Sequence record: MZ501058
Length of the DNA stretch: 64,000 nt
Origin: Escherichia phage DaisyDussoix
Strand: one strand, 5' to 3'
Both the position numbers and the translations under genes were made by a program. Of the stretch, positions 28,591-60,608 are shown piece by piece (position 1 is the first letter of the stretch; each line of letters begins with the position of its first letter). The notes below the pieces were generated by a model that searched no databases, had not been told where the DNA came from, and saw nothing but the letters and a program-made list of their open reading frames with translations.

Positions 28591-30429
28591 TTATTCTAAG
28601 TAGGAAAATCCTTCTGCATCTTTTTTAACTGTAATCTTATGGGCTAATGGATGCGTATGCCCATGAGAAACAATGATAGAATTTAGACTTTCTTCCTCAT
28701 TTAATAATTCAACAAGAGTGTCAAGTCCTTTCGTATCAATAAAGCTAATTACTTCATCAAGGAATAGAAGATTAATATTAACTTTACTAATAGATGTTAA
28801 CAGCATCCGAATAGCTAACAGGGTTGCTAGATTAATTCTACTTTGCTGACCAGTAGAGCAGTTCTCCATACTGGTACGATTTCCATCATTGAAGATTACT
28901 ACTTGTAACTTCGTTTCATCAAGTTCAAATCCAAGTGCGAATTTACCTCCAGTCATAATAGAAAGGTATTTATTAATTAATTCTTCGAATACTTTCACAC
29001 TATGCTCTAGTTTATATCCCACCAGATTTTTCAAAGCAGCAATTAGAATATCAAGATCAGCTACAGCTTCGGCTACTCCATCAAGTTTGGAAGTAATCTC
29101 AGACATTTCTGCTTCAGCTTTCTCAATCTGTTCTAGTTTCGCTTTATATTTTGCGTTGGCTAATTCGACATTTGCATTATGCTCTTTGGCAATTGCAACC
29201 TTAGAGCGGCCATCAGCGATTTCCTGTTCTAATTGTCGGATTTGCACCTGTAGGATTTGCACATTGAGTTCTTCAAAAGAAGCATCACTCATTGAATTTT
29301 TGAACTCGTCTCTAGCTACCACCGCTTTATCCAAAGCATCCTTTGCTCTAGTATACGCAACGTACTCAAGTTGTTCTTTCTTCAACTGTTCTAGCTTAGC
29401 TTCAAGAGATTGCTTCTCTTTGAACAGAGGGTCATATTCTACTCTAGCCATATCCATTGCTTTTTGAGCAGCAGTTGTATCCAGGTGAGTACCGCAAGTA
29501 GGGCATTCAGTATTTGAAGCCTCTTGCTTGAACTTCTGATAACGTTTCTTAACTTCGCTCGCACGTGAGGTCACAATCGTTAGGTCACGCGTAACACTCG
29601 AGATCTCTTCACTTTGGTCGGTGGGCGCGGGCAAATTTTTGAAAGGTTCGAAAGATTGTTCGGCAACTTGTACAGCTTTGTCCAAATTACGCAACTTAGT
29701 AATATTAGCCTCTTGAGACTTGGCTAATGCCGCCTTAATTTTCGATTCAGTAAGTTCTTGTGCTAATGGCTCTTCATCAAACTCCGGCACCTCTACAGGT
29801 TCCTGCAAAGTTCCTAGATTATTTTTTCCATTAAGGATTTTCGTAATTACAGCCATCTGGCCCTGCAAATTATTTAAGGTATTTGCTATTTCTTTACGGT
29901 CAGCCTTAATAGTTTCTGACATTTCTTTGTATTGCTCTTGATTGAACAAGTTAACAAGAAAAGCCTTACGTGTTGCATCTGTTGCTTTTAGGAAGTCTAG
30001 ATTAGAACCCACTGATTGATAAATCAGTTTGGTGAATGTTTGAAAGTCACCACCCATAATTTCTTCAATCATCTTATATGTTTGGGTTGCCGTATGCCCA
30101 CTAATATCTTCCCCATTCTTAATCAACGTTACTTTAGCAGTTGATTTAACTACTTTATGCAGCTCATACTCATCATCATCTTTCGAGAAATAAGCGTGCA
30201 TATCATATTCTTTCTTAGGGGCATTCCAAGAGAACAATGCATCCTTCTTGATACCTCGAGAGTTCTTGTTATAAAACAATTCCTCGATAACCGTAGCGAT
30301 GGTGGATTTCCCTAGCCCATTGCCACCAATTAGTTGAGTAACTGGATTCTTATCGAAATGAATTACGATGTCCTTACCGTAAGACATAACGTTACTAAAT
30401 TTTAGTGTCTTAATTGTAATCTTTGACAT
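28591..30429 (-). CDS. SbcC/Rad50-like recombination ATPase (T5 D13-like)
   Basis: Start set to ATG 30429 (MSKITIK); Walker A GGNGLGKST, coiled coil with CPTCG zinc hook, ABC signature STGQQSR, Walker B LLFLDE. Confidence 0.85.
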   Translation of the reverse strand: MSKITIKTLKFSNVMSYGKDIVIHFDKNPVTQLIGGNGLGKSTIATVIEELFYNKNSRGIKKDALFSWNAPKKEYDMHAYFSKDDDEYELHKVVKSTAKVTLIKNGEDISGHTATQTYKMIEEIMGGDFQTFTKLIYQSVGSNLDFLKATDATRKAFLVNLFNQEQYKEMSETIKADRKEIANTLNNLQGQMAVITKILNGKNNLGTLQEPVEVPEFDEEPLAQELTESKIKAALAKSQEANITKLRNLDKAVQVAEQSFEPFKNLPAPTDQSEEISSVTRDLTIVTSRASEVKKRYQKFKQEASNTECPTCGTHLDTTAAQKAMDMARVEYDPLFKEKQSLEAKLEQLKKEQLEYVAYTRAKDALDKAVVARDEFKNSMSDASFEELNVQILQVQIRQLEQEIADGRSKVAIAKEHNANVELANAKYKAKLEQIEKAEAEMSEITSKLDGVAEAVADLDILIAALKNLVGYKLEHSVKVFEELINKYLSIMTGGKFALGFELDETKLQVVIFNDGNRTSMENCSTGQQSRINLATLLAIRMLLTSISKVNINLLFLDEVISFIDTKGLDTLVELLNEEESLNSIIVSHGHTHPLAHKITVKKDAEGFSYLE

Positions 30430-32474: not shown

Positions 32475-32581
32475 TCTTTTGAATAGCTTAATAATTAGGT
32501 CGGAATTTCCTCTAGCTAGTAAGTATAGCTTTTCATAATCGAAGAATTTAATTTTTGTTTTCTCCTCGAATTTATGTATAT

Positions 32582-32611
32582 ATTATACTAGATTTCGAGA
32601 GAATTTAGCAA
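32582..32611 (-). promoter_or_regulatory. sigma70-like early promoter (proximal copy of tandem pair)
   Basis: TTGCTA -35, ~18-nt spacer, TATAAT -10, followed by ATACATAAATTCGAGGAG. Confidence 0.55.
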
Positions 32612-32682
32612 CTAAAATTTTTATTTTTCTGCTTCGGACTTTCTTATCAATCCGAAACTTTCTCTCTCAAATTTATGTATAT

Positions 32683-32711
32683 ATTATACATCATTTATGA
32701 GCTGTTGCCAA
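32683..32711 (-). promoter_or_regulatory. sigma70-like early promoter (distal copy, overlaps 3' end of helicase gene)
   Basis: TTGGCA -35, 17-nt spacer, TATAAT -10, followed by ATACATAAATTTGAGAGAG. Confidence 0.55.
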
Positions 32712-40522: not shown

Positions 40523-41290
40523 TTATTCAGCAGCCGCAGCTTTTGCATCCAGTTTAGCACGCTTAGCGGCACCATCATAGTCCTTAGCAACCAGACCACG
40601 ACGAGACAGCATAGATTTAACACCGCGCTCAGACTTACCAGTTTTCTCAGCGATCTCAGCAACAGTCATGTTAACCAGATCCAGCCCTTCTAACAGATCT
40701 TCACGAGTTTTAGCACTTGAAGTTTCCTGTACCGGCATAGCGGCGATACGACCTTCACGAAGCAGGCTCAGAGCTTTACCACGGATCTGCTTGATATTAC
40801 GACCGAAGTGAGCAGCGATAGCTTCAATAGTAGCCCCAGCAACAACCTGATTAACAAAATCAGTTTCTTCATCAGGAGTGAAGGAACGAACAGCGGCAGT
40901 TTTTTCAGTTGGTTTAACAGAAGCGGTCATTTCCAGACTCAGGATCTTACCCTGTACCTGTTTAGCACCGAACTGACCACCAGCCACAGCAGCAGCGATT
41001 TCAGCATAGGTATACTGACCAGCATGAGCGTTCAGGAAATCAACCAGTTCAGCTTCCTGCTCAGGAGTCCACGGGGATTTCTGTACTTCGTTAGCTTTCT
41101 GTACTTCAAAACCTTCTTTACGCAGTTTAGAGCCAACAGAGCGAGCAGTAACATCTTTGCCAGTTTCAGCAGCCAGTTCAGTAGCAATAGCAGCTACTTG
41201 TTCTTGAGAGATTACAGCAACACCCAGAGCAGTGGCTTTTGCTTTCAGAGACTCGGTTACACCTTCTACGTTCCAGTTCAGTTTAGACAT
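40523..41290 (-). CDS. hypothetical protein with repeated HTH-like modules (putative DNA-binding)
   Basis: 255 aa; three internal repeats of a ~25-aa basic motif (VGSKLRKEG / GKALSLLREG / GVKSMLSRRG). Confidence 0.35.
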   Translation of the reverse strand: MSKLNWNVEGVTESLKAKATALGVAVISQEQVAAIATELAAETGKDVTARSVGSKLRKEGFEVQKANEVQKSPWTPEQEAELVDFLNAHAGQYTYAEIAAAVAGGQFGAKQVQGKILSLEMTASVKPTEKTAAVRSFTPDEETDFVNQVVAGATIEAIAAHFGRNIKQIRGKALSLLREGRIAAMPVQETSSAKTREDLLEGLDLVNMTVAEIAEKTGKSERGVKSMLSRRGLVAKDYDGAAKRAKLDAKAAAAE

Positions 41291-42053
41291 TATTATTTTT
41301 CTCCAATAGTTCTTTAATCGACAGGATTTCTATCCCATTCGTTTCGGCTTTCTTATAAGATGAGGAAGAACGTTTTGATTCATCCTCACAGATCAGGTAT
41401 TTGACGTCTTTGGTAACGGATTTCTTAACCGTATATCCTAGACCTTCTAAATAGTTTGTTGCATCCGTTCTATTTGCAAAATCTTGCAAAGATCCGGTAA
41501 TACATACCGCGATTTTATTTGGCTGGGCAACTAAATCATCAGTAACGACGGTTTTAGCTTTCGCACCTTTTGAAAATTTCCACGGTAATTCGATAACATC
41601 CTTGCCTTGTGGGGAATTTAGCCAGGCTTTATAATTTTCTCCAGCCTTGCCGTCAGCCTTCACATCATGGAAGCTAGTGCAATTTTGGGATAATTTCTTT
41701 GCTGCAACCTCTCCGATTAGAGGGATTCCTAAAGAACCGAGAACTGAACCAAAGTCAATGTCTCCGCGAACTTTAGTATTTAATTCGCTAATTAACTTAG
41801 CGGCAACCTTGCTACCCACGGCTCTAACCAAATCTTCTTCGGTTAGGTAAAATAGTTCTGAAATCTTCGTCAGCTCCAGCTTCTCAATAGTTTTTGGGCC
41901 AAAGCCCTTTAACTTCATTTTTGTACAGAAGTTCTCAATTAACTTACTTGATTGCGCTGGACAGTTGGACTTATTCCGACAGAATAATTGTCCGTTGACA
42001 AGATCTAGCTTAGAACCACAAGAGGGACATTGTGTTGGAATTTCGATTTTCAT
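41283..42053 (-). CDS. ligB: NAD-dependent DNA ligase, C-terminal part (Zn finger, HhH, BRCT)
   Basis: Start set to ATG 42053 with AAGGAAG SD; CPSCGSKL...CRNKSNCPAQ zinc finger, HhH GFGPKTIEKL, BRCT-like C-terminus. Confidence 0.85.
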   Translation of the reverse strand: MKIEIPTQCPSCGSKLDLVNGQLFCRNKSNCPAQSSKLIENFCTKMKLKGFGPKTIEKLELTKISELFYLTEEDLVRAVGSKVAAKLISELNTKVRGDIDFGSVLGSLGIPLIGEVAAKKLSQNCTSFHDVKADGKAGENYKAWLNSPQGKDVIELPWKFSKGAKAKTVVTDDLVAQPNKIAVCITGSLQDFANRTDATNYLEGLGYTVKKSVTKDVKYLICEDESKRSSSSYKKAETNGIEILSIKELLEKNNNV

Positions 42054-42083
42054 CAAATTTCTTCCTTATCAATTTATATAAAT

Positions 42084-42112
42084 ATTATAGCAAGTATTTA
42101 AGCATTTAGCAA
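42084..42112 (-). promoter_or_regulatory. sigma70-like promoter inside the ligA-ligB spacer
   Basis: TTGCTA -35, 17-nt spacer, TATAAT -10; second weaker candidate TTGACA/TATACT at ~42177-42205. Confidence 0.6.
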
Positions 42113-42257
42113 CTACAATTTTAACTAACTTTGCTTACCCTCGCCATAACTTTCTATCCCTCAACTGAATGATAATAGTATATACCTAAGCGGCGAAAAT
42201 GTCAATAACCACTTTATAATTCCGATATGGTAGATGGGTAGCAAAGGGTTACATATA

Positions 42258-46632: not shown

Positions 46633-47038
46633 CGCAGTAAGCGTAGGCCATATACCTATTACCTCGTTTTACAACTCCAGTGAATCCGGTAGAATTAGTA
46701 GAACACTTCTTATTCTTTCCATTTTCGGAATAGGTAGCCTTACGTAAATTATCCCACAAGTTGTTTAAACTATCACCGTCTTTATGGTCGATAGTTTTAT
46801 CTCCAGGATCTTCGCCTGTCTTTATAAACCAGATTATTCTATGGGCTAAGTAAGCTGTCCGCTCCCCATTTATCGTAAACTCTAGCTGTCTCCCAGTTTT
46901 CATTTTGGAGCCCGCTACCTTTCCCTTCCTTGGGCCAGATAACCAAATTAAGTCCCCAGTACTTTCGTCATACCTAAGCTTTTCTAGGATAAATGCCATA
47001 GGAGGCATTGGTTTATGCGTCTTCATTAGTTGCTCCAA
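46508..47038 (-). CDS. HNH homing endonuclease with AP2-like domain
   Basis: 176 aa; IDHKDGDSLNNLWDNLR (HNH_3) plus TGFTGVVKRGNRYMAYAYCDGKQHIFG (AP2-like). Confidence 0.75.
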   Translation of the reverse strand: MEQLMKTHKPMPPMAFILEKLRYDESTGDLIWLSGPRKGKVAGSKMKTGRQLEFTINGERTAYLAHRIIWFIKTGEDPGDKTIDHKDGDSLNNLWDNLRKATYSENGKNKKCSTNSTGFTGVVKRGNRYMAYAYCDGKQHIFGRRDTPEEAHQLYLRGVKELFGEFNPSERYDSEE

Positions 47039-49799
47039 GTTCGGACAGTACTTCTTCTGCCATAGCCTTCTCTTCCTCTGTCATGAATTTGAAAGGAATT
47101 GGCATACACTCGATTTTACAATAGGTTCTGTACCAGTCTACGATATTTTCAGTGTTCATATCCTTACCAATACCCATCATACCAAGATACATTCTAGCAT
47201 ATTTTGGGTTAGCACTCTGACCTGTTTTAAGGAAGAAGTCTTTCTTCTTACCCTTCAGAGCTTCTATGAATGGTTTAATAGTTACATTTGAACACTTCTT
47301 AATATCTTCCCAGAACATCTCGTGCATCTTATGGAAGAATGCAGCTCGATCATTCGGTTTATCTTTGATATATTGTTCAACATGCTCAACTGTTACATCT
47401 TTAAAAGACTCAAGATGATAATAGCGAACAAGAAGTAGTTTAGCTTCATATGCATCTGCATGACGTGGAGCACAATAATCTGGAGTTGAATGCAGAATAG
47501 CTTTGATTCGCTCTTCCGTATATTCTTTTCCTGCACCTTCGATAGTTCCCCAGCTTTCACTGAAAATATCAATAGTTGCACCCTGATCAAGCAAATAATA
47601 ACGTAAAGTACTAGTATAGTTCCTAGATTCCAGCTCCCTACGACGTGCGTATAATTGCTGTGCTAACTCCAGCCAACCTTCATCAATGTTATATTGCTCA
47701 GAACCTGCGGAGAATCCACTCGTAGATTTATCAATAAAATAATAAATGTTCTGAGCGCCACGGTCGCGCCTGATTGCTTGGAAACGCATGTTTGGCGCTT
47801 GGTTGCTGGTTCTAGTAATAACGAATACGTTATCAAAGTAGTTGAAGTCAACGCCACTTGTTACTGATGGACTACATAATAAGCAATCAATTTGTTGGTC
47901 AATTAGCTCATTAGTTGTGTAATCCAGAATACGTCGAATATCTACATCAGACGTAGAGTTTGAGTGGATTTCCTTAACTAATGCACCAGTATTACGACGC
48001 AGTGCCATACCCTTCTCATTCAGTTCATCCGGGCCACAGTCAGATACTAGGATAGATTTCTCCCCCATCTCTAGCGAAGTCTGAAGTGCAACCCAAATAC
48101 TGGATTCATCCGGGAACTCATAAGCATGAGCTTTTGACAGCATCTTACGGTGGTGATTATAAAATGCAACCGGTTTATCAAACTCAATCAAGGAACCATA
48201 TGCTTCAATTGTTTCTGCACTAATATCACCATCTGATAATATAATGATTTTTGCAGTTGCAAGAATATCCCGAAGAACCTGAATACATTCACGACGCTGT
48301 TTAACAACCGGGGCGAATAATAGGTCATTCATTACAGCATCACATTCATCGATAAAGATTGCATCGATTTGACCAATAAAACTCTTGAACTTATGCAAAG
48401 AGTGAATAGTTGTGGACATACGGTCAATAGCGCCACGCTTAAAATTAAGCATATCTACAGACTTATCATATTGTCCTGCACTAAATTTCTTAGCATTTGA
48501 AGATACCAGTGCTCGAGTATTGGTAATTGCTAAGAAATTACCTTTAATAACTCCTGAATCTAACCAACGCACAACCGCCGTAGTTTTACCTGTACCTAGA
48601 CTTGCTTTTACAAAAGTCATATAACCTTCTGGTGGTACAGTATTTAATTTCAAGAAGTTATCAGTTTCTAGGGAATTAGTTTCTAGCTTTTTAAGTGGAA
48701 TACCTTTTAAAACATCCGGTATATCACGTTTAGAATTATTAACAAACGCTTTCAGAGCCTGTTTACGACCGTTATTAAAGTAATCTTGAATATTACGACT
48801 ATTATCTTTAGTTGCAATGTATTCTGATAAGGCTGGACGGATTTCTTTTTCTAGCCATGCGAAGTCAACACCATCCTCTAAAGCTCTGTGATAAAGTTTA
48901 GGTATGATACGTAGGTACACCCCATCCTCAGCTTCTTCTAGTTCGCTGATAGTTTCCTCTACTTTATCGGAGGCAGCTTTTTTACCTTTAATTTGATCGA
49001 GTAGAGAGTAGAATTCCTCTTTAAACTCTCCTCTAGTTGTTTCATAGTCAACCAGGTTATTAGGTAAATTTACCTTTGAGCCTTTAACAAATACCAGACG
49101 TGAAGCACCCTCCGCTTTAAACGGATCAACTATACCATCAGTAAATAAAGGATCTGCAAAATAGTGGAGCTGTACGGAAGAGTAATAAGCTAAGTCGGCA
49201 ATATCAAAGCCATACTTTTGTCTACTACTTTCGTTGATAGATGTAAATAAGAACTTGATCTGACCCTGCGTAACTTTAACATTAGATTCTAGTATTAAGT
49301 GCATTCGGATACCTGGTTTTAGGCCAGCCGAAGACGATGCATGAGCGATAAACCCTGCATCAAGAGGAAACATATCCTCGCTAATACTATTTAACATCCT
49401 AATAATATGTCGAGCCATGCCAACAAGATCAAACTTGTTACAACCTCCTGTATCTACAATACCATCCACGTCCATTGCAATTATATGACTTGGATTAGAT
49501 ACATTAAAGTTGCCCTTCTTACGTCGCACATTATTTTTGGGTGCAAGACATCGACCTCGTACCGCAACGATATGAGGGTCAGACGTTAAACGTCTCATAA
49601 GAGGGAGCATTTCTACTAGGGTTTGAGGATCAACTTCATCAATTACATCAAACTTGAAGGGCATTGAAGCTGGTTTACCTTCAGGATGCTTTGAGGAAAA
49701 TCTTTTAGCAAAAAGATAGTCTTCTGCTTTAACTTCTCGCCAATTGCCTGTGGCTAAATCGCGATGAAATCCTGCATGACCTTGTAGGATTGAGAACAC
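47013..49799 (-). CDS. large NTPase, putative primase-helicase / replication initiator
   Basis: Start moved to GTG 49799 with AGGAG SD 7 nt upstream; Walker A ASLGTGKTT, Walker B IFIDECD; N-terminal IIAMDVDG resembles AEP primase motif I. Confidence 0.55.
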   Translation of the reverse strand: MFSILQGHAGFHRDLATGNWREVKAEDYLFAKRFSSKHPEGKPASMPFKFDVIDEVDPQTLVEMLPLMRRLTSDPHIVAVRGRCLAPKNNVRRKKGNFNVSNPSHIIAMDVDGIVDTGGCNKFDLVGMARHIIRMLNSISEDMFPLDAGFIAHASSSAGLKPGIRMHLILESNVKVTQGQIKFLFTSINESSRQKYGFDIADLAYYSSVQLHYFADPLFTDGIVDPFKAEGASRLVFVKGSKVNLPNNLVDYETTRGEFKEEFYSLLDQIKGKKAASDKVEETISELEEAEDGVYLRIIPKLYHRALEDGVDFAWLEKEIRPALSEYIATKDNSRNIQDYFNNGRKQALKAFVNNSKRDIPDVLKGIPLKKLETNSLETDNFLKLNTVPPEGYMTFVKASLGTGKTTAVVRWLDSGVIKGNFLAITNTRALVSSNAKKFSAGQYDKSVDMLNFKRGAIDRMSTTIHSLHKFKSFIGQIDAIFIDECDAVMNDLLFAPVVKQRRECIQVLRDILATAKIIILSDGDISAETIEAYGSLIEFDKPVAFYNHHRKMLSKAHAYEFPDESSIWVALQTSLEMGEKSILVSDCGPDELNEKGMALRRNTGALVKEIHSNSTSDVDIRRILDYTTNELIDQQIDCLLCSPSVTSGVDFNYFDNVFVITRTSNQAPNMRFQAIRRDRGAQNIYYFIDKSTSGFSAGSEQYNIDEGWLELAQQLYARRRELESRNYTSTLRYYLLDQGATIDIFSESWGTIEGAGKEYTEERIKAILHSTPDYCAPRHADAYEAKLLLVRYYHLESFKDVTVEHVEQYIKDKPNDRAAFFHKMHEMFWEDIKKCSNVTIKPFIEALKGKKKDFFLKTGQSANPKYARMYLGMMGIGKDMNTENIVDWYRTYCKIECMPIPFKFMTEEEKAMAEEVLSELGATNEDA

Positions 49800-50298
49800 A
49801 ACAATACTCCTGTATTGGAAATGAAATAAGTTTTCTTTAGGACTATTCAGAAAGAATAGAACAACTGTTACTGTCAATTTCTCAACAATTAATCGCAAAT
49901 ACTGAAGGGGGGGTGGCAACTTCCCCTTTCACGCTACACTGCCGCTTCACTATACCGCACAAATCCTTGAGGATGGCCGCTAAGCCAGATTTGCTCACCT
50001 AATGCTTCATGTACTAGCTCATACTAGATGCAGTATACCTTACGTCATCACTTCTCAGAGTTTTTCACTCTTCCCGTCTCACTTCACAACCACCTCACAC
50101 TAGGTTGCTTCGAGGCCTTACCAGGGTTCCTACGGGGTGTAGATCGCTAAGTATTCTATTAACTATTTGTTTAAAAACTAACACGTAACAGTTAAAACAA
50201 CCCTTAATGGGGCAGCCTAACTGTTCCGTATCGCGGATTGTAAACAAGAAAAATTAGCAAAATCAGTTTTTACTAATGTCTCTCAATTCAATATAAAT

Positions 50299-50328
50299 AT
50301 TATAGCAAGATTTTGAGCATCGTGCAAG
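50299..50328 (-). promoter_or_regulatory. sigma70-like promoter driving the long leader of the primase-helicase-like gene
   Basis: TTGCAC -35, ~18-nt spacer, TATAAT -10. Confidence 0.5.
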
Positions 50329-50368
50329 TAAATTTTTAAAGAGAATGCTATCATTGGTCTTGAGTACG

Positions 50369-50395
50369 GATAAAACCGAGCCAAAATGACTCGGT
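50369..50395 (-). terminator. rho-independent terminator (minus strand)
   Basis: ACCGAG / CTCGGT stem followed in transcript sense by UUUUA. Confidence 0.5.
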
Positions 50396-50418
50396 AATCA
50401 GGATTGAGCTAATGAAAA

Positions 50419-50814
50419 TCAATCATCATTTAGGCCTGGGACATAGATTCCAATGCGATTTAATTGACCTTTAGCTTCTTCGAGAATATCTTCGGTGTAC
50501 TCCCAAATATCATCTTCTACTTGCAAAAGATAAGGGGATTCACCAGTTTCGGGGTCACGTGTAATGGCTAAGCCACATGGATGGAATATAGAGAAGTTGA
50601 GGGCAACAATCAAGCCCATGCTGGACAATTCATTCCAGTCAGCTTCCCAACCATCATCTTCATTTTCGTCCACAAAGACACCTACACTAGGGTCTGTTAC
50701 AGAAGTAAACGGAAATGTTACACTAACCTTGTCAACCCCCAACCAACGTGCAAGGAGCCCCTCAGCACGCTCTACCAAACTAGGATCTATCTGACGCCAA
50801 AATACTTGTTCCAT
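50419..50814 (-). CDS. hypothetical protein, paralog 1 of tandem pair
   Basis: 131 aa; shares GV.VD...W.EL..MGL..ALN...F.P...R.TGE.P...PGL with next ORF. Confidence 0.45.
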   Translation of the reverse strand: MEQVFWRQIDPSLVERAEGLLARWLGVDKVSVTFPFTSVTDPSVGVFVDENEDDGWEADWNELSSMGLIVALNFSIFHPCGLAITRDPETGESPYLLQVEDDIWEYTEDILEEAKGQLNRIGIYVPGLNDD

Positions 50815-50823
50815 TCTGCCTCC

Positions 50824-51252
50824 TTAAGCAGTTAAACCTGGGATCATATACCCGAAACGACGAAGTTTCTGAATCCCCTCATTTACTTCCTCGGGCGAAT
50901 ATGACCAGCCCTCACGTTCATTTACCTGGAAAGCAGGAGCTTCACCAGTGCGATAATTTACAATAAGACGGTGATTTGCAGGCATAAACAGCTTATGATT
51001 CAAGGCAAAAACCAGACCCATTTCATCGAGTTCTTTCCAGTCTACAATCTCTTCTACTCCCTCCCCTAAATCCACGCTAACTCCAATACACGGAGCTTCC
51101 TCTAGCGGGCCTTTAAAGGATAAGAAGATATCGTTATTCTCACACCAAATCTTGAGCAGATTGATGGTTTCATTATACATACCATTAGGGAGAGAGCGCC
51201 AGAAGTTGAGAAGCATAGGATTTACCTCTTTCATGAAAATATTATTGAACAT
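50824..51252 (-). CDS. hypothetical protein, paralog 2 of tandem pair
   Basis: 142 aa; collinear similarity to ORF 50419-50814. Confidence 0.45.
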   Translation of the reverse strand: MFNNIFMKEVNPMLLNFWRSLPNGMYNETINLLKIWCENNDIFLSFKGPLEEAPCIGVSVDLGEGVEEIVDWKELDEMGLVFALNHKLFMPANHRLIVNYRTGEAPAFQVNEREGWSYSPEEVNEGIQKLRRFGYMIPGLTA

Positions 51253-55555: not shown

Positions 55556-55584
55556 TATACCCTCCTTCTCTAACTAAGACTACT

Positions 55585-55613
55585 ATTATAACTCATTCGA
55601 AGGCGGATGTCAA
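55585..55613 (-). promoter_or_regulatory. consensus sigma70 promoter for nrdD
   Basis: TTGACA -35, 17-nt spacer, TATAAT -10. Confidence 0.65.
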
Positions 55614-55664
55614 CAATATTTTACTATAACATTCTGTAAATTGATCTGAGTCAAAAAATTTTAT

Positions 55665-55693
55665 TTGCCAACCTCTATTAAAAATAGTATAAT
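55665..55693 (+). promoter_or_regulatory. sigma70-like promoter (distal) for plus-strand early genes
   Basis: TTGCCA -35, 17-nt spacer, TATAAT -10. Confidence 0.55.
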
Positions 55694-55805
55694 CACGCGC
55701 CCGTGTACGCGATATAAAATGATTATCTAGTACCATACATCTCCCAATAAAAGCAAGCAAATTTTTTATTTAAATGCAATATCATAGGCTTATTTAAAAT
55801 TGTAG

Positions 55806-55834
55806 TTGCTTTCTCCCGTATATATTGGTATAAT
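55806..55834 (+). promoter_or_regulatory. sigma70-like promoter (proximal) for phoH
   Basis: TTGCTT -35, 17-nt spacer, TATAAT -10, followed by GTTGATAAACA element. Confidence 0.6.
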
Positions 55835-55907
55835 ATATTTGTAAGTTGATAAACAAGATCTTTTTGTTGATCCTCTGTTAGCGAAGTACACTATAGGAGT
55901 GTTATTT

Positions 55908-57025: not shown

Positions 57026-59356
57026 ATGAGCCATCGCATTGAAAAAGTAATTAAACGTGACGGTACTGTAGAAGACTTTGCTCCTGAAAAACTCAATGGT
57101 TGGGCAGAGTATGGTTGCAAAACAGTTGATGTAAGCTGGTCAGCCATTACTATGGCTGCTCAAAAAACTCTACCTAAAGGGGTTGTAGATTCCGACACTC
57201 TGATGGATGCATTAATTAAGGCTGCTGAAAGTCTTATCAAAGATAATCCAGCATACGATGTGCCAGCAAAGGAATTACGTCTTGCGCAAATGCGTAAACG
57301 CCTTTATGATTCTTTCGAACCACCTTCTCTACGCTTCTTCCATGATCACATGGTTAGCGTAGGTGCATGGGAAGACATGAGTGCATGGATTACCGATGAG
57401 CAATTTGAAGCTCTGAATCAGGTTATCGACCATGATCGTGACCGTCTTTTTACTAGTGGTGGGCTGAAGCAGTTCTTTGATAAGTATTCCCGTCGTAATA
57501 TAGCCACTGGTGAAATTTACGAAACTCCGCAATTCGCCTACATGGGTATGGCAATGGCGATGTTATCTCAACCTAACTGGACAATTCTAGATGCAATCGA
57601 CCTCTACAACGCAATGTCGCTCCACAAAATCAACGTTCCTACGCCGCCACTGGTTGGCCTGCGCTCTAGTGACCGTGGATTTGCTAGTTGCTGCCTCGTG
57701 GATTCCACTGACACGTTGGATTCAATCGACACCGCCGAGCACATCGTCTTCAAAATGGTCGCAGCCAGAGCGGGAATCGGGTATCATCTTGAAAGCCGAT
57801 CAATTGCTGATCCGGTGCGAAATGGGGCATTCCCGCATTCCGGAAAACTGCCATATTATCGACACATTGACCGCTCAGTAAAGGCCAATACTCAGCAAAC
57901 TCGTGGTGGTTCTGCTACAGTGTCTTATCCATATTTCGATCCTGAAATCATTCAATTGATGCAGGTTAAGCAACAACGTGCTACAGATGAGAATAAAATC
58001 GATAAGATGGATTATTCTCTGAGCTTCAACAATCTTTTGTTAAAACGTTATCTGAAAAACGAAGATATTACGCTAATGTCATACTTCTATGCTCCAGAAG
58101 TTCATGAGGCGTTTTATAGTGATGACGAGGCTAAATTTGAAGAAATCTATGTGGCAGCGGAGAAACGTGTGGCATCTCTTACAAAGATCGACCACGAAGG
58201 AAAGACAGTTCCAGCAGCTCCTAAGGTCTCTGCAAAAGAAATCCTAGATACTTGGCTACGTATCCGAATGGAAACAGGACGTATGTATGCTCATCACATC
58301 GGGGAATCTAATCGTCACGGTAACTTCCTTGATCCGATCCGTATGACAAACCTTTGTGTTGAAATTACTCAGCCTACACGCCCGTTCCATCATATTACAG
58401 AGCTGTATAAGACAAAAGAGCAGCTTGATCAAATGAAGCCGGAGGATATTGGTGAAGTATCCCTGTGTAACTTAGGTGGTGTTGTACTTGGACGCATGGA
58501 ATCTCTGGCTGAGTGGGAAAAAACTTGCTACATCCTTCTGAAATTCGTTGATACAATTATTGAAATTCAGGATTATCCGTTCCCAACTATGGAATATACG
58601 GCTAAGAAACGTCGTAACGTTGGTATTGGCCTGATGAATGCAGCAGGTGCAATGGCAGCAGAAGGTCTGGCTTACGAAGGTATTGAAGCCCGTAACTGGA
58701 TTCACCGTGAGGCTGAAAAACTGTCTTACTTCCTGCATAAAGCCTCTGTACGCCTGGCTAAAGAACAGGGCGCATGTGAGTGGTTTGATCGTACTAAACC
58801 ATCTAAAGGAATTCTAGTAATCGATACGTACAAGAAAACTGTTGATGAACTGGTATCCGTAGGTCTAGAAATGGATTGGGAGTCTCTGCGTGCAGATATT
58901 CTGAAATACGGCATGCGTAACTCTGTTCTGACTGCTCAGATGCCAGGAGAAAGTTCTTCTGTTCTGTTAGGTGTTACTAACTCTATTGAACCGCCTCGTA
59001 AGATTGTATCTATCAAGGGTAGTGCAGTAAATAAAGTAATTGCAATTGCTCCAGGTGCAACCGATTGGGAAACGTTAATGAGCTATAAATTGGCTTATGA
59101 TGTAGATCGTATCGAGTGGATCAAATGGGTAGCAACTATGCAGAAATTCTTCAGTCAGTCTATCAGTACGAATATGTACTATGACTACACCAAGTTTGAG
59201 AATGAGATCATTCCTGGTCCAGTAGTAGTTCGTGATTTCATGACTGCTGTTAAGTATGGGTGGAAAACTTGGTATTACGCTAACTTCAATACTGCAAATG
59301 GTGGAGGTGCTGGAGAAGAAGCAGCCGGTTGTGCATCAGGCGGTTGTACTATTTAA
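57026..59356 (+). CDS. nrdA: ribonucleoside-diphosphate reductase alpha subunit (class Ia)
   Basis: Start set to ATG 57026 with AAGGAAAG SD; ATP-cone start VIKRDGTVEDF, active-site NLCVEI, C-terminal CASGGC. Confidence 0.9.
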   Translation: MSHRIEKVIKRDGTVEDFAPEKLNGWAEYGCKTVDVSWSAITMAAQKTLPKGVVDSDTLMDALIKAAESLIKDNPAYDVPAKELRLAQMRKRLYDSFEPPSLRFFHDHMVSVGAWEDMSAWITDEQFEALNQVIDHDRDRLFTSGGLKQFFDKYSRRNIATGEIYETPQFAYMGMAMAMLSQPNWTILDAIDLYNAMSLHKINVPTPPLVGLRSSDRGFASCCLVDSTDTLDSIDTAEHIVFKMVAARAGIGYHLESRSIADPVRNGAFPHSGKLPYYRHIDRSVKANTQQTRGGSATVSYPYFDPEIIQLMQVKQQRATDENKIDKMDYSLSFNNLLLKRYLKNEDITLMSYFYAPEVHEAFYSDDEAKFEEIYVAAEKRVASLTKIDHEGKTVPAAPKVSAKEILDTWLRIRMETGRMYAHHIGESNRHGNFLDPIRMTNLCVEITQPTRPFHHITELYKTKEQLDQMKPEDIGEVSLCNLGGVVLGRMESLAEWEKTCYILLKFVDTIIEIQDYPFPTMEYTAKKRRNVGIGLMNAAGAMAAEGLAYEGIEARNWIHREAEKLSYFLHKASVRLAKEQGACEWFDRTKPSKGILVIDTYKKTVDELVSVGLEMDWESLRADILKYGMRNSVLTAQMPGESSSVLLGVTNSIEPPRKIVSIKGSAVNKVIAIAPGATDWETLMSYKLAYDVDRIEWIKWVATMQKFFSQSISTNMYYDYTKFENEIIPGPVVVRDFMTAVKYGWKTWYYANFNTANGGGAGEEAAGCASGGCTI

Positions 59357-59462: not shown

Positions 59463-60608
59463 ATGACTACTTTACTAAACCTGAACTGGGATCATACTAA
59501 TGCTGACCTTTTCCTGGGAGATTCTCTCGGTATCGCAGATTATGTACGTGTAGCACATCCAGAACTAGAACGTCTGGCACTACTGCAACGCTCTCAATTT
59601 TGGACTGAAACTGAAATCAGTCTGGAAGCAGATAAGAAACAATGGCCTAATCTCCCACGTGAAATTCAGGAAATTACACTCCTGAACTTAGCATGGCAAA
59701 CCCAAACCGACTCCTTTATCAGTCGTGCCCCTGAAGCAGCTATTATGCCGCTTGTAAGTCGTCCAGAATTGGAAGGTATGCTCAAGCAGTGGAGCTACTT
59801 CGAAGATCTGCATAGTCGTGCTTATAGTAATATTATTCGTAATGTGCTGACTGACCCAGCAGAATTTATTGATTCTGTAACCAAAAACCAAGAAGCATTT
59901 GCACGCATCGCTGATTCTGTTGAACTGTTCGATGAACTGTACCAGTTAGGTCAGTATTTCATCGCAGTACGTGATCATCGTGGTGACAATACGTATCCAG
60001 AAACTGAGTTCCCTGAAGTTAAGCGTGAAACTCAGGCTAAACTATTAGACGCTTACTTTGCGATCTATGGCCTGGAAGCAATGCAGTTTTACGCATCCTT
60101 TGCATGTACCTTTGCATTAGCAGAGAACGATATTCTGCAAGGTATTGCTAAAAATCTGCAATTAATCGCTAAAGATGAAGCTCTGCACACTCAGATGTCC
60201 AAAGCAATCATCCATATTATGTTTCAGCAATTTGACAAAGATCTGGTAGATGAAGCAGTGGCTAAAGCACCAGCACAGCTCCTGAAAACTCTGAAAACTG
60301 AAATTGAATGGGGTCATTTCATTTTCAAAGGTCGTAGTCTGATTGGCTTGAATGCAGAACTTCTAGAAGAATATCTGTATTTTGTGGGACGTAATGCATT
60401 TATGCACATCGGTGTAGAATGGCCTAGTCATTTACCAGTAATCACCAAAAACCCTATTCCGTGGATTATGAACTGGTTGGATACTACTTCTCTACAGCCT
60501 GCTCCACAAGAAATCCAGATTGGTGCAGCCTACCGTGTAGGTCAGGTAACTGAGACCTCTACTGATACTCTGAAAGATCTGGGCAATGAATTTGGAGATT
60601 TCCTATGA
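59463..60608 (+). CDS. nrdB: ribonucleoside-diphosphate reductase beta subunit (class Ia)
   Basis: 381 aa; ferritin-like di-iron fold with E/H ligand spacing; SD GAGGAAAA; stop overlaps frd start. Confidence 0.9.
   Translation: MTTLLNLNWDHTNADLFLGDSLGIADYVRVAHPELERLALLQRSQFWTETEISLEADKKQWPNLPREIQEITLLNLAWQTQTDSFISRAPEAAIMPLVSRPELEGMLKQWSYFEDLHSRAYSNIIRNVLTDPAEFIDSVTKNQEAFARIADSVELFDELYQLGQYFIAVRDHRGDNTYPETEFPEVKRETQAKLLDAYFAIYGLEAMQFYASFACTFALAENDILQGIAKNLQLIAKDEALHTQMSKAIIHIMFQQFDKDLVDEAVAKAPAQLLKTLKTEIEWGHFIFKGRSLIGLNAELLEEYLYFVGRNAFMHIGVEWPSHLPVITKNPIPWIMNWLDTTSLQPAPQEIQIGAAYRVGQVTETSTDTLKDLGNEFGDFL

Follow-up and report, generated by a model that had tools for sequence, protein, structure and literature searches.

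Host ribonuclease III (RNase III) cuts base-paired stalks in the precursors of ribosomal RNA (rRNA), in the phage lambda N leader and in T7 early messenger RNA (mRNA), and the rep leaders of IncI-alpha, IncB and IncFII plasmids reportedly combine a loop of sequence 5'-UUGGCG-3' with a pseudoknot and an antisense RNA. At the R-loop origins of phage T4 the transcript forms an RNA-DNA hybrid, as in ColE1 RNA II, and recognition of a single strand by a helicase has been suggested both for the oriS* hairpin of herpesvirus and for the 'ssNA-helicase' motif of Rfam. The large, complex-folded RNAs of bacteria and phages form a short list and are often ribozymes, riboswitches or scaffolds of ribonucleoproteins (RNPs). 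T5 is a classical model phage, and how replication of its DNA starts is, to our knowledge, still unexplained. Here we describe a non-coding stretch of 619 nt (positions 49800-50418, counted from the true GTG start of the helicase gene) in a 64-kb piece of DNA from the T5-like Escherichia phage DaisyDussoix (MZ501058), called the window below, which lies ahead of the gene for a UL9-like helicase, the homologue of T5.108. Comparison with related phages makes it best explained as a gene for RNA, namely a structured 5' leader of ~490 nt on the early helicase mRNA; that the gap encodes a functional structured sense RNA we consider very probable, and the leader represents a new family within a broadly familiar type of RNA, the large structured phage leader or non-coding RNA.

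Fold and strand of the helicase leader

The leader opens with a terminal hairpin (H0) and hairpin A and continues into a domain of ~330 nt closed by P1, a long-range duplex of ~35 bp rich in A/U and G.U pairs, inside which lie a core of several helices (P2-P8 and hairpin HU) and hairpin H3 (Table 1). The loci compared were 35 from IMG/VR and 13 metagenomic ones, together with the annotated GenBank regions of T5, DT57C and Vibrio, Pectobacterium and Klebsiella phages. Comparative folding across T5-like phages, which an earlier note made from the letters of this DNA had proposed as a check, was carried out with an unfitted pipeline, a plain MAFFT alignment of eight cores followed by RNAalifold, and predicts 64 pairs, 36 of them changed on both sides; column shuffles give 15.1 +/- 2.5 covarying pairs, and none of 500 shuffles reaches 36. 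In the predicted structure 88.8% of cells are paired, against 39-45% when the 3' partners are slid by one to three columns. Compensatory pairs in an unfitted alignment thus exceed both the shuffled and the slid controls, as is generally asked of a conserved structured RNA.

Individual elements tell the same story. In seven lineages the cognate arms of P1 form 28-37 bp with an energy of -24 to -36 kcal/mol, compared with -8 to -19 kcal/mol for non-cognate arms drawn from different lineages and -9 to -13 (standard deviation ~3) for shuffled arms. Across 11 lineages, Providencia- and Proteus-type ones included, seven of the nine predicted pairs of HU show compensatory change, its inner stem covarying as GGC/GCC, GAC/GUC and GCC/GGU, and CUUAGCGG in its apical loop (49977-49984) is invariant in 11/11. 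A hand-curated helix table covering P2-P7, HU, H3, Hend and PK1 (the last a candidate loop-loop pairing), which was fitted by eye and should be weighed accordingly, has 339 of 343 cells canonical, as opposed to 60% for non-cognate arm combinations, and two-sided covariation in 55 of 64 columns. Aligned alone, the T5-type allele, one of two described below, yields 110 predicted pairs with three broken cells, each variable helix position being compensated or a G.U transition, and shows the same P1/P2/P7/P8/HU/H3 layout. Helices are kept by compensatory change in Tequintavirus/Epseptimavirus and in the Pectobacterium-, Klebsiella-, Providencia- and Proteus-type lineages. A naive within-allele covariation scan was dropped as swamped by phylogenetic linkage.

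A covariance model seeded solely with window-type, Pectobacterium and Klebsiella sequences finds a single strong match in the window (49905-50056, minus strand, 160 bits) and recovers the unseeded T5-type cores at the syntenic site (E 0.005-0.01). Providencia- and Proteus-type cores are matched weakly (E 0.33 and 3.3), also at syntenic positions, and nothing is matched in the Vibrio or metagenomic loci. A weak match of covariance model R1 at 29990-30060 on the plus strand (10.7 bits, E 0.68) is probably spurious.

In every lineage P1 holds 3-8 G.U pairs, and 16-25 of its pairs are A-U; the reverse complements of its arms pair more weakly (-8 to -21 kcal/mol). Over the whole leader the sense strand folds 11-44 kcal/mol better than the antisense strand, with z-scores of -3.0 and -2.4, respectively, an advantage that partly reflects G+U richness. 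The fold begins no more than 10 nt from the conserved start at which we place transcription, with a 5'-terminal hairpin. Taken together with the absence of a terminator (below), the G.U pairs of P1, the weak antisense arms and the position of the fold at the start site argue for a sense RNA, not for a cruciform or a double-stranded protein-binding site. Covariation alone does not separate RNA from DNA of the same sense, and the adjacent gene encodes a UL9-family helicase, which might recognise the folded non-template strand of an unwound origin as single-stranded DNA. We hold this to be extremely unlikely in view of the 5'-terminal hairpin next to the conserved transcription start, the many G.U pairs and the candidate loop-loop contact (both more typical of RNA than of DNA) and the lack of an Rfam match, ssNA-helicase included; the arguments raised below against an origin transcript apply to it equally.

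The sigma70-like promoter that the earlier note had placed on the minus strand is indeed there, as a T5-type early promoter that a strict consensus scan missed. An A-rich tract lies upstream of it, ATTTAT-A-TTGAATTGAGAGA follows its -10 box, and a promoter is annotated at the homologous place in T5 (NC_005859). A consensus promoter stands upstream of the helicase start codon in every enterobacterial lineage compared, at a distance of ~526-538 nt in Tequintavirus/Epseptimavirus and the Pectobacterium-phage and Klebsiella-phage lineages, as against ~655 nt for the Providencia type and ~806 nt for one further locus (L040). By analogy with the layout of T5 PN25 as we remember it, we take the A at 50292 to be the transcription start, which would make the leader ~493 nt long. 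A scan from the promoter to the helicase start codon found no terminator-like site, in keeping with the earlier suggestion that the gap is transcribed as a leader of ~490 nt. On the plus strand a consensus scan of 49800-50420 found no sigma-70-like site, and an antisense RNA was rejected for want of such a promoter. Within the window the promoter is the only part of the leader that resembles other sites, these being other early promoters. A published strand-specific RNA sequencing data set of a Tequintavirus infection exists (phage Bas33, ENA PRJEB101990; PMC13250531). The idea of a structured 5' leader or non-coding RNA is thus strongly supported, with compensatory changes behind about a dozen sense-strand helices, a conserved promoter and no terminator in between.

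Table 1. Positions of the leader elements and of the flanking genes in the window
Feature	Position	Strand	Description
T5.107 homologue (Pfam DUF7415)	50419-50814	-	Upstream gene; stop at 50419-50421
Rho-independent terminator hairpin	50370-50394	-	CCGAG...CUCGG + UUUUAU; ends the upstream operon; from sequence, with the T5 (NC_005859) homologue annotated at 58952-58976
T5-type early sigma-70 promoter	50322-50327 (-35), 50299-50304 (-10)	-	TTGCAC, 17-nt spacer, TATAAT
H0	50246-50284	-	5'-terminal hairpin; outer stem GAGAGA...UUUCUU, C/U mismatch, covarying inner stem
Hairpin A	50197-50241	-	Variable outer stem, then conserved GAUAC-GG-AA-CAGU-UNG-GCUG-CC-CC-AU
P1 5' arm	50143-50196	-	A/U-rich arm of the long-range duplex
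Core	49934-50142	-	209 nt, bounded by P2 arms CUACAC/GUGUAG; contains P3-P8 and HU
P3 domain	50073-50136	-	Contains hairpins P4 and P5; P5 loop UAG...GAGGU holds the PK1 5' partner, 50093-50097
P6 and junction	50057-50071 (P6), 50049-50056 (junction)	-	Hairpin AGAG-UGAAAAA-CUCU, then conserved junction GAGAAGUG; invariant alignment columns
P7 arms	50030-50037, 49951-49958	-	
P8	49996-50030	-	
HU	49959-49994	-	Covarying 8-bp outer stem, 3'-side internal loop, 3-bp inner stem GGC/GCC, apical UUAGCG
H3	49903-49931	-	Just outside P2; conserved 11-nt loop AAGUUGCCACC; 3' arm corresponds to the plus-strand G7 run
P1 3' arm	49863-49902	-	
Hend	49843-49859	-	Hairpin CUAUUC-UUUCU-GAAUAG between P1 and the ribosome-binding site
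Shine-Dalgarno and start codon	49807-49811 (AGGAG), 49797-49799 (GTG)	-	Helicase gene; from sequence
Helicase gene (T5.108 homologue)	47013-49799	-	928-aa UL9-like SF2 'replication origin binding'/bipolar helicase; its mRNA carries the leader

Though the lineages share little sequence, the core is of nearly constant length (~240 nt), the stretch from the 5' arm of P2 through H3 measuring 241 nt in the window, 241 and 235 nt in two Pectobacterium-phage lineages and 243 nt in the Klebsiella-phage lineage. The inner stem of H0 differs in sequence and keeps its pairing in the window and in three other loci (L028, L039 and L027), and the GG/CC step of hairpin A becomes AG/CU in the Klebsiella-phage lineage. 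The G7 run (49907-49913) that the earlier note had pointed out is the complement of the RNA C-run forming the 3' arm of H3, and the hairpin it had seen at ~49905-49928 is H3 itself. Near-identical phages differ in the length of this run (C7, C6 or CCCCAC); where it reads CCCCAC, the change is offset by GGGG to GUGG on the 5' arm. The C-run/G-run feature is absent from the T5-type allele. Hend appears as CUAUC/GAUAG, CUUUCC/GGAAAG or CCUG/CAGG in other lineages and is followed by an A/U-rich spacer and an ordinary ribosome-binding site. In each lineage the P5 loop complements the 3' internal loop of HU, which carries the 3' partner of the candidate PK1 at 49968-49972; the pairings are UGAGG:CCUCA, UUAAGG:CCUUAA, UUAAGG:CCUUAG, CAUGUG:UACAUG and, in T5, AGGU:ACCU. 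Composition-preserving shuffles give per-lineage p values of 0.13, 0.017, 0.072, 0.035 and 0.06 (Fisher combination ~1e-3), and PK1 is likely to be a loop-loop tertiary pairing.

Alleles, relatives and the surrounding locus

A sliding comparison of window and T5 gives 98-100% identity over the leader's first 100 nt (a value that also holds for the hairpin A stretch between the two alleles) and ~80% for the flanking genes, whereas the next ~300 nt (50199-49900) show 34-64% identity and are essentially unalignable, a collapse by which two cassette-like alleles, 'window-type' and 'T5-type', are told apart. Judged by these alignments, the P1-enclosed domain is present as at least two alleles with a common architecture and almost no common core sequence, and bands of coverage and identity suggest that both are common (very roughly 200 and 330 of 530 records). 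An island, GGCTTAGCGGCC, is invariant across the alleles while its flanking bases differ yet stay complementary, and it was this that prompted the structural analysis. As traced by the HU loop, the family extends over Tequintavirus, Epseptimavirus, Pectobacterium phages (DU_PP_V and a second lineage), Klebsiella Sugarlandvirus and the Providencia- and Proteus-type phages. In all loci examined the domain immediately precedes the helicase gene at a conserved distance, and insertions of 96-500 bp are common just upstream of it. The earlier note had reckoned with a region not conserved among relatives; dispensability aside, the architecture is conserved across lineages.

Identity between window and T5 drops a few bases into each P1 arm, counted from its outer end, and is regained beyond P1, with the outermost 9-11 bp common to both alleles, and other small inserts exist in the leader (96 nt in L012, L026 and L033). 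Such a pattern would suit a selfish or protective cassette, with the P1 arms as inverted termini of a small module that moves or recombines, or with a fold that merely shields the leader from Rho and RNases. We nevertheless find this very unlikely: the invariant 8-nt loop, the conserved junctions, the constant core length and the compensatory internal helices in at least five lineages speak of selection on a specific fold, and the domain is present once per genome, has no second copy elsewhere in the window and encodes no nuclease or transposase.

The small insert, of 96-97 nt, sits right after the 3' arm of H0, ahead of hairpin A (window ~50246), in L012, L026 and L033 (~2410-2505), DT57C (L001) and phage Tennessee (L002); flanked by a duplication of TTTTTCTT and endowed with a hairpin of its own (ATTTACGG...CCTGTAAAT), it is found with both RNA alleles and so has the look of a little mobile element that the leader tolerates on the 5' side of the P1 domain. 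Other inserts fall between the T5.107 stop and the leader promoter (window ~50330-50418) and measure ~500 bp in L010/L017/L034, ~170 bp in L007/L009/L025 and ~270 bp in L026; the largest has its own consensus promoter (TTGACA...TAATAT) and an open reading frame (ORF) starting MSFTQQELLDNFRYE, and is possibly a cassette of the homing-endonuclease type. Breakpoints of recombination are concentrated around the leader. The T5.107 gene is mosaic, the window copy being 98% identical to those of phages with the other RNA allele and ~70% identical to those with the same allele, and a weak paralogue (~30% identity) stands directly upstream of it (window 50419-51252 and loci L006-L036). Between otherwise close phages the first ~50 helicase codons (49650-49799) show 60-84% nucleotide identity, as against ~80-98% deeper in the gene.

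Farther afield, Vibrio T5-like phages have a consensus promoter and an ORF-free leader of ~700-860 nt before the same helicase (L041/L044 1700-2416, L042 1770-2636, L043 1640-2363), with a tandem duplication of a ~100-nt module with hairpins in L043 (GACTATCAC...GTTAACTTCTGTCG) and terminator-like hairpins within the leader in L042. The metagenomic relatives show neither covariance-model matches nor the UUAGCG motif.

The window belongs, as had been supposed, to a T5-like phage: megablast of 49700-50500 matches 441 phage records at 80-99% identity, from Salmonella and Escherichia Tequintavirus and Epseptimavirus, and the 928-aa gene has the expected Shine-Dalgarno sequence and GTG start. The product of T5.108 has been described as the 'D2' bipolar helicase (Wong et al. 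2013; PMC3632103), and its homologue is labelled 'D1' in DT57C; the sole recognisable domain is the herpesvirus UL9 helicase core (residues ~388-533), the N-terminal 390 aa matching no Pfam family and having just two close database matches. The N-terminus itself, MFS(I/L)LEGH, is conserved. A mechanical in-frame extension of the ORF to a TTG at 49919 was rejected, the open codons it would add numbering 0-43 across lineages and not being conserved between them. In T5 (NC_005859) the start of T5.108 lies at 59,545 of 121,750 bp, near the middle of the genome, and the homologous gap is annotated with a terminator and a promoter and is otherwise blank for 472 nt before the gene.

No ORF of at least 60 aa occurs on either strand of 49920-50418, just as the earlier note had reported, and this is the largest such gap in the window; other ORF-free gaps of at least 200 nt are 55578-55898 (321 nt), 32475-32694 and 42057-42257, the last being the counterpart of the T5 ligA-ligB promoter region (P-K28a/b). 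Other GenBank records leave the homologous gap blank or fill it with ORFs of 33-50 aa, called by PHANOTATE-type annotators and entered as 'hypothetical proteins', whence the possibility of one or more missed protein-coding genes. This is almost certainly wrong. The small sense ORFs were rejected because they begin at TTG or GTG without a Shine-Dalgarno sequence, are truncated or shifted between lineages, lie in different frames and match no Pfam family, and the sole conserved 'peptide', DTEQLGCPI, is read in differing frames in different lineages; a hidden conserved gene, which the earlier note had named as the finding that would overturn its view, is accordingly not seen, the ORFs being conserved neither in frame nor in length.

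Known RNAs and host sequences were searched as well. The Rfam search proposed by the earlier note was run on 49000-51200, both strands, with the 4227 models of Rfam 15 (cmscan, E up to 10) and matched no family, the RNAI/RNA II-related, YrlA, riboswitch, group I/II intron and T-box models included, yielding just two chance-level hits, sR17 (17.4 bits, gathering 36) and Hrs1 (16.3 bits, gathering 56.4). ARAGORN found no tRNA or tmRNA genes in the whole window. Host origin or mimicry was rejected, since blastn against 5,426 complete E. coli genomes found nothing similar to the leader. Neither Rfam 15 nor the GenBank records inspected nor the searchable literature contains a description of this RNA.

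Proposed roles of the leader domain

With about an even chance of being right, and by analogy with described leaders, we propose a cis-regulatory or processing mechanism, in which the domain would act on the helicase message that carries it. P1 would be a processing stalk for host RNase III, cleavage would detach the folded domain, and the helicase mRNA would then start just before Hend; the invariant HU loop and hairpin A would be bound by a conserved partner, for which the helicase or some other early replication protein is the most plausible candidate, and this binding may exert autogenous control over the amount or timing of initiator synthesis. A length of two to three helical turns gives P1 the geometry of RNase III stalks. 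In such stalks the sequences on either side of the enclosed RNA pair over ~20 bp or more; here they pair over 28-37 bp in seven lineages, and the pairing is specific to cognate arms. Single-stranded elements that stay frozen amid drifting helices (the UUAGCG loop, hairpin A and the junction following P6) are the signature of contact sites, and the constant place of the domain in front of the helicase despite upstream insertions constrains the possible mechanisms.

Several points weigh against this proposal. Both RNase III processing and protein binding of the leader are steps that we infer. The ribosome-binding site has an identical predicted mean unpaired probability whether the leader is complete or the mRNA is truncated at -80, which gives no sign of a classical sequestering switch. 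The Vibrio leaders show no detectable homology to the domain (no covariance-model match, no UUAGCG), and folding of one of them (L041) gives a z-score near -1 for either strand, which is not significant. The helicase of L046 (52% identity) and those of several metagenomic loci at 35-37% have no long leader, so the domain is not obligatory for the gene. Finally, a core of about ten helices, of constant length and with a likely tertiary pairing, far exceeds the needs of an RNase III site or a translational operator, and such elaborateness hints at some further function. Considered separately, a riboswitch was rejected: no Rfam class matches, no terminator-like site lies downstream, the accessibility of the ribosome-binding site is unchanged, and the closing helix of ~35 bp was judged too long to switch.

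The domain might also have an activity of its own. The P1-enclosed ~330 nt could represent a new class of large complex-folded phage RNA, either as an RNP partner or loader of the UL9-like helicase that sets where T5 replication starts (an RNA-specified origin) or as a self-processing ribozyme that matures the initiator mRNA, and the cassettes would then be specificity alleles; we regard this as decidedly unlikely. Alternatively, the domain may be excised and work elsewhere as a trans-acting RNA, whether as a stable RNP, a decoy or a catalytic RNA (in host takeover or anti-defence, for example), the place upstream of the helicase merely supplying an early, strong promoter. A complex fold of constant length with a candidate tertiary pairing and invariant loops is typical of RNAs with a function of their own, P1 as a long duplex at the ends looks like the processing stalks from which stable RNAs are freed, the near-total lack of common sequence between the cassette-like alleles recalls arms-race diversification, and there is no predicted effect on the ribosome-binding site; even so, we consider a trans-acting RNA unlikely, since the domain always stands directly upstream of the helicase at conserved spacing despite frequent upstream insertions, no terminator follows it and no target or partner was identified, the sole complementary 10-mer (in the D5 mRNA) not being conserved.

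The search for targets centred on the HU loop, for which no conserved complementary target was found. A perfect 10-nt complement, GCCGCUAAGC, occurs in the D5 mRNA (window 40561-40570, minus strand; also in T5), and a perfect 8-nt complement in ligB (41796-41803). In Pectobacterium phage DU_PP_V changes at synonymous sites have removed the 10-mer, and in a Klebsiella phage it survives only in part, so it was judged to be due to chance; the number of 8-mer complements in the window equals expectation.

A different role would place the RNA at the start of replication itself. As an origin transcript or primer RNA, the structured early transcript would form a persistent RNA-DNA hybrid beside the initiator gene and be processed into a primer or load the UL9-like helicase, the alleles being replication-specificity types. 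An untranslated, structured transcript of ~490 nt does adjoin a putative initiator helicase, its size and dependence on fold recall what is generally known of ColE1 RNA II, the P1 arms are A/U-rich and the locus is close to mid-genome in T5. The passage of PMC3632103 that cites Bourguignon 1976 refers to internal origins seen by electron microscopy. Against these, a consensus scan shows no antisense promoter, iterons and UL9-type boxes are missing, the C-run/G-run does not occur in the T5-type allele, some helicase homologues lack a leader, and the strand bias of recombitrons suggests dominant unidirectional replication of T5 from one genome end, not from a central origin (PMC10055335). All told, we view an origin or primer RNA as quite doubtful.

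The iteron-bearing origin that the earlier note had offered as its other candidate finds no support in the sequence. An origin of this kind has at least three direct repeats of ~17-22 bp beside the initiator gene, whereas the repeat search yielded only two-copy families of 9-17 nt and no iteron-like direct repeats. The reiterated TCACT(T/C) motifs that had drawn attention do form a real local cluster, three copies falling in a 37-nt stretch (50048-50084) when all 64 kb contain 35, but they are 6 nt long and the cluster is absent from the T5-type, Pectobacterium- and Klebsiella-phage versions, which shows that they are not conserved iterons. No match to the UL9 box CGTTCGCACTT with up to two mismatches occurs in 49800-50418, and its window-wide count is at chance level; the structure, besides, is strand-asymmetric. 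As for an A+T-rich unwinding element, the P1 arms are A/U-rich, but they form a duplex together within a single strand and show covariation as RNA; the overall GC profile is unremarkable.

Whatever its mechanism, a ~330-nt RNA domain in front of a candidate initiator helicase offers a mutable handle on the control of initiator synthesis or of initiation, in a genome that has been annotated many times with this gap left blank or given spurious mini-ORFs; annotators should stop calling ORFs here. Hundreds of sequenced T5-like isolates carry the domain, many of them candidates for phage therapy or food biocontrol, and two non-alignable alleles of one architecture amount to a natural experiment in the evolution of RNA structure and possibly of specificity. 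Should the domain have an activity of its own in replication initiation or self-processing, the RNA would be categorically new.

Comparison with known systems

Among described systems the RNase III stalks resemble P1 in that sequences flanking a folded RNA pair with each other, here over more than two helical turns. With the lambda N and T7 leaders the locus shares its place in an early phage transcript, ahead of a gene for regulation or replication, and, on the proposed cleavage, a small hairpin that would remain at the new 5' end of the mRNA; it departs from them in an enclosed domain that is much larger (~240 nt, about ten helices, invariant loops) and in containing no rRNA or tRNA, and cleavage here is a prediction. 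The autogenous translational operators of T4, the gene 32 pseudoknot and the gene 43 hairpin, are likewise structured elements in the 5' leader of a replication gene and plausible sites for the encoded protein, but they are 20-60 nt long and overlap or abut the ribosome-binding site, whereas the present domain ends ~60 nt upstream of the start codon and leaves predicted accessibility unchanged.

Similar in loop pattern are the repZ/repA leaders of the IncI-alpha, IncB and IncFII plasmids, which are also long structured leaders of a replication-initiator gene, with long-range loop pairing and an invariant hexaloop that fits the YUNR U-turn pattern (UUGGCG there, UUAGCG here). The UUGGCG loop itself is absent here, UUAGCG being present in 11/11 lineages, and the phage leader has no leader peptide, no conserved CGCUAA-type complement near the ribosome-binding site (by reading), no antisense promoter and no Rfam match; the phage RNA is also several times larger. 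ColE1 RNA II is comparable as an untranslated, fold-dependent transcript of ~500 nt that has a strong promoter, is tied to replication functions and exists in sequence alleles, and it differs in that the phage locus shows no equivalent of antisense RNA I and no mapped origin, its transcript runs into a protein gene, and there is no similarity in sequence or in Rfam. GOLLD, ROOL and ssNA-helicase, for their part, are large complex-folded RNAs borne by phages, ssNA-helicase being likewise associated with a helicase; from these the leader is set apart by the lack of a match in Rfam 15, by its host range (enterobacterial Demerecviridae) and by its architecture.

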